This document shows positions 27,995 through 45,367 of a DNA stretch of 64,000 nt, piece by piece (the first letter of the stretch is position 1; each line of letters starts with the position of its first letter). The notes beneath the pieces are model-generated. The model saw only the letters and a program-made list of their open reading frames with translations. It ran no database searches and had not been told where the DNA came from. A program made the translations under genes and the position numbers. Origin of the DNA: Octopus vulgaris (taxonomy: Eukaryota); NCBI GenBank assembly GCA_951406725.2, contig OX597814.1, positions 77,128,001 through 77,192,000 of the forward strand, read 5' to 3'.

Positions 27995-28173
27995 TTAAAT
28001 GCAGTTAAGGACGCTTTGTGACCATTGTGTACCCGGTGCACACTGCATTACATGGTAATTACCCCACTGGTCACATTGAATAAAGTAATTTTTCTCTGGA
28101 TGAGCGAAATAAAAGTTATTCTCTTTAGCATTTTCTGCTGTACATGATTTCTTGGCAATTTCTTTAACTTCAT
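27995..28173 (-). CDS. Exon 2 encoding a single chitin-binding-like domain (no same-strand exon 1 in window)
   Basis: Polypyrimidine tttcag acceptor, phase 1: (D)EVKEIAKKSCTAENAKENNFYFAHPEKNYFIQCDQWGNYHVMQCAPGTQWSQSVLNCI*. Open, and absent from the ORF track. Confidence 0.8.
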
Positions 28174-29262
28174 CTGAAACGAATAGAAAATGCAGAAAAT
28201 ATTATACTGTTCTCGAAATGCGTTTGCATAAGACCTGAAATCTCAATATATTTATTTGATGTTAATTTATTTATATGCCATTAATACCGTTGCTAAAAAG
28301 GTACATCTAATCTTTTTCTGTTCTTAATGGTGTGCACTTATAATTTAAATTTAACTTATTTTAACTTTTCTTTTTGCAAGAACGTCAGTTAGAAGCGTGT
28401 ATTAAGTGACAGACTAACCGAAAGTCTGTCGTGTTACAACTTAGAGGTAGGGCAGTGCTTTTGGCCTCTACTGAGGATGTCCAACACTGGTGTCTTGAAG
28501 ATATATTCAGAATGGTGACATGTTAGCACTAGTGTCGGTTCTACGAAAAGTTTCTGGTGGTCAGATGAGCGAAATTAAATTTGGCATCGCAAATGAATTG
28601 AGTTTACTGGGGACGATAAGAAAAATACTTCGATCCTCTACTCTATAGTGAGTTTGACGTGTGTGTACAACTATCTTACGTTTCTGAATCTCATTCTGCA
28701 ATTGAAATTAGCAAATGAGAAAAAGGTGTTCTCCAGCGTGCATTTAATAGGTTCGCTGACGAGTGTTACAAGACAGGGATGAGAATTTGTGCTGTGAAGA
28801 TTGAGGCTTTAGTCATCTCAAAACAGCCTTTCCAGCACATTCTCTTTGTTTATAGAATATCCTTGAGATAGGTGGAGAAGTTTAGGTGAAGTTCCACGAT
28901 TTATGGAACGCAGGAGGCTGAACTGGACGTTAGAATTACTGGTACTGTCACAGAATGCACTAGCACCAGCAATCGATCCTCAGAAGAGAGGAAATGTTAG
29001 CAAAAATACCAAATTGAATTTCTTTAATTCGTGTTACACGCCTTTCCTCATATATGTTGGTTAATGACCACAAGAATACAATCGCAAATACAAGTGATCA
29101 CAAAAGAGTTTCCTTTGAAAGGTTCCGAAGTAACATTAAACGAAAGGTTGACTAGCAAGGACTTCATGGTCGAGCCTCTATTTCTCCGCCTTCAGAGGTC
29201 ACAGCTCTAGTACGACAGATCTGTTTAGAATGTTGCAAGAAATAATCGCAAGAGGTGTGTTC

Positions 29263-31150
29263 TGCGCTTGTTGTGACAGTTCTCAAGGATCATACGATTG
29301 ATTAGCCGTTGATCTTTGCATCCGTAAGAGCCTCGGCGGCACCCTTTTTGTTCGATGGGGAAAATATCGTTCTTCTCCATGAATGCATATGTTTTCTCCG
29401 CCAGGATAGATGTTAGGATTTTATACGTGGTGGATAGACAGGTTATAGGCCGATAGTTTTTTGGAAGGTTGGTTTCGTTATTCTTTGGGAGTAGGTAAGT
29501 AATGCCACTTACTAACCATTCTGGTGTTTTCTTTGGGTCTCTCATAATTCCATTGAGCAGCTGAACTAGCTTACCGTGTGCGCATGGGAGCGATGCGAGC
29601 CAGAAATTCGGCACCCTATCTTTACCGGGGGATTTCCAATTATGGGCCTTCGTGAGTGCCTTTCTTAGGTCTGCTATTGTGATGTCTTCCCATGCTTGTT
29701 GTTGTAAATTTTGGTAGGATCCTTCAATTTGTATAATCCAGTCTGCATTTATGTTGTACGTCTTCTTGTCACTCCAAATCCTTTTCCAAAAGTTTTGAAC
29801 TTCTTCCATGGGAGGGGGTCTTTAACGGTTACTTTCTCCTTCCCTATTTCTCTGTAGAATTTTTGGGCATTGGATGTGAACAGCTTATTTTGCTTGTAAA
29901 ACTTGTTTCTCTTCTCAAATCTTCATATTCTTTGGGCTTTTGCTTGGATTTTTGTTTCAGCGTTTCTTTTATTGATATCAGTTCTTCTCTTGGTGAGGAT
30001 CCAAATTTTCTCTTCATCTTTCTTCCTGTTCTGGATCTTACATCATTTCCACATATTAGTTCATTTAATATTGATATTTCCCCCTCTCATAAATTCAATC
30101 TCTTTTTCAATTTTACTTCTCCAGGTTTGATTTCTTCCCAGGTTTTGTTTTCTTTGTTTTTTCGGGGGCATACAGCTGGTTTCAATTGCCCTAGCAGAAG
30201 CGTAAATAATTTCATTTAACTCAGTAAAATCAGGTTTTAATTCTCGTATTATTTCATTTGTTACATAGTTGCCAATTTGGATTTGTTTTTTATTTTGGTT
30301 TGTATTTGAGAGTTTATGAAGTGGTTCTCTATCATTCATACTTGTATGTCTTACAACTTCAAGCGTATTCAGGATTTTCTGCCTCATTTCTGCCATAGAC
30401 TCTCTGCGTTCTTCAGCAAATGCGAGATCTTCAGTTACTGTTGTTTTTTCGTTTTCCTGGCTATCTTTAACAGGTACAATAGAATTTCTTGTATCTTCAG
30501 GCCTTTGCGTACTTTGGTCAGGTGGCAGTCTTTCAATTAAGCCTCGTGGCGGGCTATACTGTTCATCTGATTCTTCATTTCCTTTGTGTCTTATATTTAT
30601 GTCATTTTCCGTTGCGTGCTTGATCGCGCTTATTTCACTGTCTGTGAGCCTGTTATTTCTAAGGATATCCCTCCTCACATTTGCTAATTTGTTCTCGTCC
30701 AAATAGGGCCTACTGTCTTGATTCCGTGTTCTCCATATACTGTAAGAGTTTGCGGTGTGTCTCTCTTGAGATGGCCTACCTAATGCATAGTAATAAGCGT
30801 ATATTACTTCTTTATACTCTTCTCGGGTCCATTTGTTCCGCTTACATTTTTCCTTCTGTGGTGGTTGTGGTGGAGAACTTGGAGGGCTCGAGTTGGGGGA
30901 TTTCCCGTTCAAGTGACCATCCATGTCCGTATTCGGAGAAGAGTTTGTGCCAGTTGATGACTTTTCGATCCCAGGCTGACTCTTCCCTGGGGGACGCGCT
31001 TCCAGATTAACCATAGGACAAGCGATTTGGTATACTGATTTAGTTTTCCTTTTAGTTTCCAAAAACATTTTGGTGCTACGATAATGTTATCATTTTTTAG
31101 CTTTGGTTGGCTCGTGAGGAGACGGCCATCATTGCCGTTACAATTATAAT
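29263..31150 (-). mobile_element. 5' half of an R4/Dong LINE, cut off inside RT
   Basis: Myb-like KRNKWTREEYKEVIYAYY, then NWKSPGKDRVPNFW, NYRPITCLST.YK and EQKGCRRGSYGCKDQ; ends abruptly at the inverted-duplication junction. Confidence 0.88.
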
Positions 31151-43269: not shown

Positions 43270-44300
43270 CTTCTCCATCCATCCATCCAGCCAAATTTTC
43301 CAGCCATTAATCGTGGAAGGGTTGCAGCAGTAGATTCCTCGGGTATCTCTTCCATAAGGTCCTGTTAGAAGCAACCGCCGTTAGACCTTCCGGTTGACAC
43401 CAGCCTGAACAATTGACACTATAGATATTATACAGCCATTTTTTCCCTCGGTCTACCCCTACGCCTCTTGCCAGTTGGCGCGGCTTGAACACACCTCTTG
43501 CAATTATTTCCTGCAACATTCTAAACAGATCTGTCGTACTAGAGCTGTGACCTCCCAAGGCGGAGAAATAGGGGCTCGACCATGAAGTCCTTGCTAGTCA
43601 ACCTTTCGTTTAATGTTACTTCAGAACCTTTCAAAGGAATCTCTTTTGTGATCACTTGTATTTGCGATTGTATTCTTGTGGTCATTAACCGACATTCATG
43701 GTCATATATGAGGAAAGGCACGTAACACGAATTAAAGAAATTCAATTTGGTATTTTTGCTAACATTTCCTCTCTTCTGAGGATCGATTGCTGGTGCTGGT
43801 GCATTCTGTGACAGTACCAGTAATTCTAACGTCCAGTTCAGCCTCCTGCGTTCCATAAATCGTGGAACTTCACCTAAACTTCTCCACCTATCTCAAGAAT
43901 ATTCTATAAACAAAGAGAATGTGCTGGAAAGGCTGTTTTGAGATGACTAAAGCCTCAATCTTCACAGCACAAATTCTCATCCCTGTCTTGTAACACTCGT
44001 CAGCGAACCTATTAAATGCACGCTGGAGAACACCTTTTTCTCATTTGCTAATTTCAATTGCAGAATGAGATTCAGAAACGTAAGATAGTTGTACACACAC
44101 GTCAAACTCACTATAGAGTAGAGGATCGAAGTATTTTTCTTATCGTCCCCAGTAAACTCAATTCATTTGCGATGCCAAATTTAATTTCGCTCATCTGACC
44201 ACCAGAAACTTTTCGTAGAACCGACACTAGTGCTAACACATGTCACCATTCTGAATATATCTTCAAGACACCAGTGTTGGACATCCTCAGTAGAGACCAA
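43270..44300 (-). mobile_element. Old RTE (Rex3/Expander-like) relic in intron 1
   Basis: YVPFLIYDHEC..MTTRIQSQIQ..VEPLFLRLGRSQL and a (GATG)n-type tail. Paralogous at about 28450-29262 and 63720-64000. Confidence 0.6.
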
Positions 44301-44570
44301 AAGCACTGCCCTACCTCTAAGTTGTAACACGACAGGCTTTCGGTTAGTCTGTCACTTAATACACGCTTCTAACTGACGTTCTTGCAAAAAAGAAAAGTTA
44401 AAATAAGTTAAATTTAAATTATAAGTGCACACCATAAAGAACAGAAAAAGATTAGATGTACCTTTTTAGCATATAAATAAATTAACATCAAATAAATATA
44501 TTGAGATTTCAGGTTTTATGCAAACGCATTTCGAGAACAGTATATTTTCTGCATTTTCTATTCGTTTCAG

Positions 44571-45367
44571 ATGAAGTTAAAGAAATTGCCAAGAAATCAT
44601 GTACAGCAGAAAATGTTCAACAGAATAACTTTTATTTCGCTCATCCAGAGAAAAAACACTTTATTCAATGTGACAAGTGGGGTAAATACCGTGTAATGCA
44701 GTGTGCACCGGGTACAGCATGGTCACAAAAGGCCTATACATGCGATAGAGAGAATAGCATAATTGGAACTCAACCAACGGTAAACACCCCGACAATAACC
44801 AAATCCACCATTACCAATCCCTGTACCAAGGAGAATATTGACGCCGGTAGATTCTATTTCGCTCATTCAAACGAAAAATTCTTTATTTATTGTAACAAGT
44901 GGGGTGCATACTGTGTAATGCCGTGTGAACCGGGTACAATATGGTTACAAGTCATCGAGAGCTGCGTTGCAGATGATAGCAATGTTAAAACCACGACAAC
45001 CACCAAATCCACCATTACCAATCCCTGTACCACGGAGAATATTGACTCAGGTAAATTCTATTTCGCTCATTCAAACTAAAACTTCTTTATTTATTGTAAC
45101 AAGTGGGGTGCATACTGTGTAATGCCGTGTGAACCAGGTACAATATGGTTACAAGTCATCGAGAGCTGCGTTGCAGATGATAGCAGTGTTGAAACCACGA
45201 CAACCACCAAATACACCATTATCAATCCCTGTACCAAGGAGAATGTACTCCATCCCTTTTATCCAGACCAAAATTTCTTTATTCAATGTGTCGAGTCGGG
45301 TAATTACTTTGTAATCCCGTGTGCACCGGGTACAACATGGTCGCAAAGCGCCTATACCTGCATGTAA
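44571..45367 (+). CDS. Exon 2: tandem chitin-binding-like (CBM14-type, squid beak CBP-like) domains with Thr-rich linkers; in-frame TAA at 45077
   Basis: Four repeats of C..EN....(FYF).H....FI.C...G....M/I.C.PGT.W.Q....C. Repeats 2 and 3 have a 204-nt period. The spliced product is 195 aa to the TAA at 45077-45079, or 291 aa without it. Confidence 0.85.

Follow-up and report, generated by a model that had tools for sequence, protein, structure and literature searches.

Probable diversifying selection and crossing-over among first-repeat exons in a young Octopus cluster of four-cysteine CBM14 repeats

We analyzed a 64,000-nucleotide window of Octopus vulgaris DNA (assembly GCA_951406725.2, contig OX597814.1, positions 77,128,001 to 77,192,000 of the forward strand), in which two similar exons encode a small domain with four cysteines. 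One exon, copy A, lies on the minus strand, and the other belongs to a gene on the plus strand, here called gene B. Coordinates are those of the window unless given as megabases or with a contig prefix. In our reading, each is a first-repeat exon from a young cluster of Octopus genes, in which the loops of the domain were likely diversified by selection and crossing-over makes, fuses, and kills copies. We lean slightly toward this combined reading; that diversifying selection operates is, taken by itself, probable. Our observations include the structure and splicing of the B-type gene, its repeat architecture, a recombinant copy A without exon 1, an excess of replacement changes, and premature stops in gene B and in a further paralogue, D.

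The two exons were compared without gaps, from position 28173 down to 28016 on the minus strand and from 44571 to 44728 on the plus strand, ending at a shared TGG TCA CAA anchor. A first-pass annotation of the window had counted 10 nucleotide differences in about 52 codons, with 9 replacements and no synonymous change, and this count was exact (10/158 nt), just as the Cys, FYF, FI, and W core residues that it had described as unchanged are the same in A and B. The replacements (A/B) fall at codons 15 (A/V), 16 (K/Q), 17 (E/Q), 28 (N/K), 29 (Y/H), 35 (Q/K), 38 (N/K), 40 (H/R), and 49 (Q/A). The same annotation had put the divergence of the adjoining intron and of a dead downstream repeat at about 2%, and the flanks are closer still, with 16/1062 differences in the intron (1.5%) and 4/400 downstream (1.0%); the dead repeat itself differs at 1/156 nt. 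Codon 49, which holds 2 of the 10 nucleotide differences, is a product of recombination and contains no point change, so that the comparable part of the pair is 48 codons with 8 nonsynonymous (N) and 0 synonymous (S) changes. Six of these eight replacements change charge, which is weakly above chance (P of 0.03 to 0.07), and the net charge of repeat 1 is +4 in B, 0 in A, and -2 in the paralogue C.

The cluster consists of three A fragments and genes B to E. In codons 1 to 48 of repeat 1, A and B differ at 8/144 nt and B and C at 12/144 nt (5.6 to 8.3%), compared with a flank divergence of 1.4 to 1.6% over 2790 to 6435 clean sites (2.8 to 6.4 kb); with overdispersion allowed, the contrast between repeat 1 and flanks has a P of 0.002 to 0.015 for A/B and 0.0005 for B/C. 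Parsimony across the three lineages gives 15 N and 1 S, with three residues each at codons 16, 28, 29, and 35. Between the terminal repeats of B and C, 34 codons contain 13 N and 1 S, although the DNA immediately after them is 99% identical. Pooled, repeat 1 and the terminal repeat yield 28 N and 2 S (P of 0.007 to 0.02). Exon 1 and codons 1 to 14 are invariant.

Codon site models were fitted with our own code, whose one-ratio likelihoods fell within 0.02 of those from IQ-TREE. Left out of these tests were two identical A copies, the recombinant tail of A, stop codons, nine codons around a deletion in B, two damaged repeats of D, and the dead repeats. M2a was preferred over M1a with P values of 0.0012 (four first repeats), 0.0009 (eight repeats of A to C), and 9e-5 (18 repeats of A to D), the selected class under M2a had an omega of 3.1 to 5.5, and M8 was likewise preferred over M8a. 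When site rates were gamma distributed, the P values for the same three sets were 0.009, 0.001, and 0.0008. Null simulations on the eight-repeat tree reached the observed statistic in 0/39 cases, and in 0/37 and 0/37 when 4 or 10 conversion tracts were added. Gene E, used as a control with the same domain in the same region, is under purifying selection (omega of 0.25).

Gene conversion had been raised in the first-pass annotation as a possible source of the differences. It accounts for codon 49 and for a mosaic in the intron, and possibly, through tracts of 9 to 17 nt, for single sites, but it does not account for the states that none of 19 other repeats has in register (B codons 16, 17, and 29; codon 19 of A and B; C codon 28), which conversion from a repeat in this assembly therefore cannot supply. 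We rejected it as the whole cause. The candidate tracts of 9 to 17 nt are no longer than background matches (median, 12). The earlier proposal of diversifying selection is moderately supported once the paralogues are added: a class of sites with omega above 1 is found and the charge bias is weakly above chance, but omega over the whole domain is not significantly greater than 1.

Several results weigh against selection and lend some credit to an account without it, in which the introns make the copies look younger than they are because conversion homogenizes the flanks, and relaxed constraint lets the exons drift as copies decay. The one-ratio (M0) omega is 1.4 to 1.7 with P of 0.09 to 0.26. 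The chance of seeing no synonymous change is 0.048 to 0.077 for 10 changes and 0.088 to 0.129 for 8 (kappa of 2 to 4), and the zero count alone was discarded as proof of selection because it is too weak (P of 0.05 to 0.13); the three-lineage count of 15:1 has by itself a P of 0.05 to 0.09. Nulls with strong variation in site rates reached the statistic in 6/39 cases. Sites chosen beforehand as variable from outside homologues gave omega of 2 to 6 with P values of 0.013, 0.088, and 0.013. The middle repeats have pN close to pS (0.049 versus 0.041 for B2/C2), and the inner repeats of D carry no significant selection signal (P = 0.19). At three intron sites C goes with A1, and A2, A3, and B form the other group; this mosaic reflects conversion between paralogues, and the flank divergence may thus understate the age of the copies. 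The flanks are overdispersed, with 6 to 9 changes in the highest noncoding 144-site windows (up to 8 or 9). Because A has no exon 1 and B and D have premature stops, relaxed constraint is in play, and codon 49 is recombinant. Site posteriors are naive empirical Bayes values from few sequences, a single haploid assembly is the source of all the DNA, and the region was chosen because it looked odd. Against drift, an older exon should hold more synonymous changes than the 2 S seen beside 28 N, the site models stay significant under gamma rates, and the Cys, Gly, and Trp residues, exon 1, and codons 1 to 14 are untouched while novel states appear without a donor. We therefore regard drift under relaxed constraint as unlikely, if the most serious of the competing explanations, and diversifying selection as the better account of repeat 1.

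Errors in assembly or consensus would be another way to produce the differences between A and B, and inverted duplicates of 98% identity, as found here, are hard to assemble, such that copy number and orientation may be wrong. However, the A exon is present three times in identical form, A/C-type and B-type letters both occur in independent public contigs, and the differences avoid synonymous sites and homopolymers. This explanation was rejected for the A/B differences and is very improbable.

Gene B is built of two exons. The coding part of exon 1 (41314..41392, plus strand) has 26 codons and ends at a phase-1 donor, GT at 41393; it resembles a signal peptide, called by eye from the hydrophobic N terminus, is identical in paralogue C (0/79 nt differ), and is a 100% match to the N terminus of the NCBI model P0042, which is labeled O. 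vulgaris. The intron (41393..44570, plus strand) is 3178 nt long with GT..AG borders and contains a 5'-truncated piece of a long interspersed nuclear element (LINE) at 41898-42662; copy A1 carries the piece as part of a longer element, gene C has no such piece, and public contigs are interrupted at 41898. The joint 41391>44570 (GT..AG) is present in contigs of two of four public runs, and the other two have loose ends that equal the tail of exon 1. The RNA status of these runs is the tool's guess, and the contigs show neither level nor tissue.

Exon 2 of gene B was built with four repeats and Thr-rich linkers and now stops in repeat 3. Its open frame runs from 44571 to 45079 on the plus strand, where a premature TAA (45077-45079) lies inside repeat 3, and the predicted protein has 195 amino acids and two whole repeats. 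Repeat 1 (44600..44743, plus strand, Cys10 to Cys57), which belongs to the plus-strand exon of the first-pass annotation, holds most of the derived changes. Repeat 2 (44822..44965, plus strand) is followed by a Thr-rich linker, repeat 3 (45026..45169, plus strand) is a near copy of repeat 2 broken by the stop, and the terminal repeat 4 (45230..45367, plus strand) is four codons shorter and ends at the ancestral stop. Behind it, in the 3' untranslated region, lies the dead repeat (45410..45553, plus strand) with an internal stop. A joint at 44857>45261, found in three of four runs, represents a two-repeat form or, equally, a terminal repeat without the four-codon deletion of B. One run has a contig combining Lys38 with His40, a combination absent from A, B, and C, and a contig of another differs from B at 7/152 letters with Lys38 and Arg40 retained; such further combinations may be alleles, paralogues, or species. 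The 3' region of gene B also contains four head-to-tail copies of a 103-nt unit (45775-46190) that is single in A and C.

The exon of copy A (27995..28173, minus strand), with 58 codons plus TAA, joins repeat 1 to the end portion of a terminal repeat. Its frame runs from 28171 to 27998 with the stop at 27997-27995, and the acceptor at 28174 is intact. Up to codon 43 the sequence follows repeat 1, and from codon 49 on every site matches the terminal repeat of C, which places the crossover within codons 44 to 48 (28028..28042, minus strand). The sequence indicates that copy A arose by an internal deletion through unequal crossing-over. A dead repeat follows at 27809..27952 and an intron remnant precedes the exon at 28174..29262 (both minus strand), where the similarity to B stops. 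Across 197 kb, all three A exons lack an exon 1 upstream on the same strand: A2 and A3 face an exon-1 block head-to-head within inverted duplicates of 98% identity, and A1 has LINE sequence in front of it. If the orientation of the assembly is right here, the A exons are likely fragments, and copy A is likely no longer a working gene. The description of the two exons as paralogous thus stands insofar as both are repeat-1 copies of one family, but one partner is a recombinant fragment without exon 1, and the count of differences is partly a count of recombination. No A-type joint is among the nine joints listed, which is uninformative on A expression as contigs drop variants, and no listed holder of the A exon is on record as RNA, which says nothing on expression either. 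A homologue search with the single-repeat A product returned no matches, and the NCBI model P0154 wrongly splices copy A between LINE-type remnants.

When repeat 1 was searched against the same genome, 57 candidates yielded 34 matches, of which 26 lie within C1:76.87-77.21 Mb. First-repeat exons occur at five places with 93 to 100% DNA identity, namely, in C (76.870 Mb), in the three identical A copies (77.048 and 77.090 Mb, plus strand; 77.156 Mb, minus strand), and in B. Exon 1 also occurs at five places, in B, C, D, and two orphans, one of which is frameshifted; an orphan at 7571..7649 (plus strand) has no exon 2 on that strand before exon 1 of B. Gene C is intact with three repeats. Paralogue D, whose exon 1 (62546..62650, plus strand) lies in the window and whose repeat exon lies just beyond it, has about 12 repeats with a stop in repeat 2 and a frameshift further on. 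In gene E (G000:C1:77207583-77210520; L038, L039), an additional N-terminal domain precedes three repeats. Nested inverted segmental duplicates of 12 to 26 kb and about 98% identity (window 1-8155 and 33707-41898; G000:C1:77063025-77092522) scatter the copies of exon 1 and exon 2, and their orientation may vary between individuals or be mis-assembled. At G000:C1:91471333-91473627 (L025), 14 Mb away, lies a gene with a long single exon of these four-Cys repeats, which matches P0006.

The repeats resemble the carbohydrate-binding family CBM14, the chitin-binding peritrophin-A domain. Exon 2 of B scored 32.2 bits against Pfam CBM_14 (PF01607; cutoff, 22.1), the single repeat of A scored 20.6, just below the cutoff, and the first match in the atlas was CBM_14 (0.91, 181 shared features). 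The structural model of B repeat 1 has the CBM14 fold (predicted local distance difference test [pLDDT], 89.8) and by VIA aligned with 6BN0 (Z of 6.8; root mean square deviation [rmsd], 2.0; 52 aligned) and 4ZCE (Z of 6.6). The best 8 of 30 matches were all CBM14 (Avr4, Der p 23, EHEP, Blo t 12, CHIT1, and tachycitin). CBM14 chains also ranked first in Foldseek, with a best E value of 0.0085 and none at E ≤ 0.001. The model predicts a distorted beta-sandwich with two core disulfides, the Cys pairing being that expected from homology, and by its secondary structure the changed sites fall at a helix end, in loops, and in a hairpin turn. The cysteine pattern is C-x22-C-x10-C-x12-C, with four residues in place of the six of the canonical motif; since Der p 23, an accepted CBM14 protein, also has fewer disulfides, the four-Cys pattern marks a subtype. 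A signal peptide (by eye), tandem domains, and Thr-rich linkers together form an architecture of peritrophin type.

Whether such repeats bind chitin is less evident. The part of PMC4844120 available to us reports that Trp465 of chitotriosidase (CHIT1) is needed for chitin, and at this position, two residues after the last Cys, the octopus repeats have Arg (repeat 1 of B and C), Ala (inner repeats), or a stop (A). According to the available portion of a preprint, the chitin-binding residues are not conserved across the CBM14 family, and Der p 23 and EHEP have the fold and are reported without chitin binding (bioRxiv 10.1101/2023.06.04.543649); chitin binding by the octopus repeats is therefore not a given. 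The two absent Cys, the missing Trp, and these two proteins that are reported not to bind also count against our combined reading.

A profile of the four-Cys repeat matched 805 cluster representatives at E ≤ 0.001, and 134/251 pattern-matched repeats had exactly four Cys. A full-length N-terminal domain without a Pfam family precedes the repeats in 20/154 repeat proteins, among them P0102 (L027), and in gene E. The model of P0102 has pLDDT above 90 across most of this domain and matches lytic transglycosylases, lysozymes, and GH19/GH23 chitinases (Z of 9.3; rmsd, 3.3; 122 aligned); the Z is moderate for a domain made of helices, and a fold does not demonstrate activity. Nearly all of the 50 matches listed were of the lysozyme superfamily or CBM14; Foldseek gave no match for P0102 at E ≤ 0.001, and P0010 had no sequence match in the Protein Data Bank. 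These models suggest that the repeats ancestrally target polymers of N-acetylglucosamine (GlcNAc). The helix-end Glu of P0076, which we take to be the catalytic position of the lysozyme-fold domain, is replaced by Gln in P0102 and by Arg in gene E, and some of these domains may thus be inactive.

These features suggest how the protein might work. A signal peptide would send it out of the cell, each disulfide-tied repeat would be a small binding module, and the Thr-rich linkers would be glycosylated spacers, so that modules and spacers together could bind a surface multivalently. Changes of charge in the loops (codons 15 to 19, 28 to 29, 35 to 40, and 49 to 58) would tune what is bound. Because relatives, including gene E, join four-Cys repeats to a predicted lysozyme-fold domain, the most likely ligand would be a foreign GlcNAc polymer, on the surface of a microbe, parasite, or prey, met at an epithelial or mucus surface. 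It is conceivable, if unlikely, that the cluster is an octopus-specific hypervariable family of secreted glycan-recognition proteins for pattern recognition or defense against parasites, a family in which four-Cys CBM14 repeats stand alone, having left a lysozyme-fold parent gene; that such a family diversified by selection on loop charge and by shuffling of repeats between copies is similarly tentative.

Selection could also be real in a structural matrix protein (of gut or sucker lining, beak, radula, or egg coat) in which charge tunes assembly or material properties. The architecture of signal peptide, tandem CBM14 domains, and Thr-rich linkers equals that of peritrophins, a chitin-binding protein of squid beak (7BWE) is a weak profile match (E of 0.062), and duplicated peritrophin-1-like genes of beetles are, in the accessible part of PMC13001012, reported to be under positive selection. 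However, the repeats do not have the chitotriosidase-type Trp, and an arms race would better explain why a few codons changed again and again within about 1.5% neutral divergence and why genes often die. We consider a matrix role rather unlikely. Proteins of gamete recognition and of venoms are often small, Cys-rich, secreted, variable in repeat number, and fast evolving, and the protein described here, likely secreted, shares these traits. It might serve in gamete recognition or in the posterior salivary gland (venom) and diversify against a receptor or a target in prey, but no homology to toxins or gamete proteins rose above the Pfam cutoffs and we found no paper tying the models to such tissues, which makes this role improbable. 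Both roles overlap with the reading of diversifying selection and are not alternatives to selection itself, and none of the results establishes the immune, venom, or recognition role named in the first-pass annotation over that of a matrix protein.

Compared with insect peritrophins and chitotriosidase's chitin-binding domain, the octopus proteins are alike in the Pfam match of B, fold, signal peptide, tandem domains, and Thr-rich spacers, and differ in having four Cys, a short helix, an NPCTxEN-type start, no Trp at the second position past the final Cys, and a protein that changes much faster than its flanks. The mite allergen Der p 23 (4ZCE) shares the fold (Z of 6.6; rmsd, 2.3 over 46) and has the two core disulfides, as the available parts of PMC4844120 and PMC6128652 state. 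Aplysia EHEP (8IN3), a secreted molluscan protein of three domains, also shares it (Z of 5.8; rmsd, 3.1 over 49) but has six Cys per domain, and identity to the octopus repeat is only 24 to 28% for both. The same four-Cys repeat occurs in lophotrochozoan-type proteins (P0006, P0007, P0010, P0076, and P0102), many with the predicted N-terminal lysozyme-fold domain; gene E, under purifying selection, belongs here, whereas B, C, and D have no such domain. Oyster bindin, snail FREPs, and amphioxus VCBPs are hypervariable recognition families of invertebrates. They resemble the octopus cluster in combining positive selection, recombination, and change in repeat number in a secreted lectin-like module, but they use other domains.

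Proteins with CBM14 repeats are already known, as is, from the part of PMC13001012 available, positive selection on duplicated peritrophin-like genes. The cluster is a new, mis-annotated member of the CBM14 repeat families, with a selection signal that is credible and not decisive. We found no paper on it; supplements, which lay outside the search, may list its models. Cephalopod innate recognition molecules are poorly cataloged, and if both selection and a foreign ligand hold true, the cluster would offer a small expressible domain with natural variants (charge of -2 to +4) for work on CBM14 specificity. If it encodes a matrix protein or drifts, it is an ordinary birth-and-death cluster.

Searches for homologues returned Octopus models only (3/24 and 3/5 candidates), and the codon tests were therefore made without orthologous DNA of other species. 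The NCBI model P0042 fuses B with pieces of D and E under the name "collagen alpha-1(XIV) chain-like"; because the models mis-join exons here, the family is invisible to routine selection scans. P0002, a model from O. sinensis, is nearly identical to B and C in its middle repeats but diverges strongly from them in its terminal repeat, which again indicates the end repeats as the variable ones. Mobile elements also lie near the copies. One at 48156-53211 has direct terminal repeats (48156-48747 and 52639-53211, 92.6% identical) together with a minus-strand frame of 881 codons for a reverse transcriptase (48773-51418; Pfam RVT_1), and further LINE-type reverse-transcriptase remnants were found at 2743-4026, 24185-24682, and 29260-31086.

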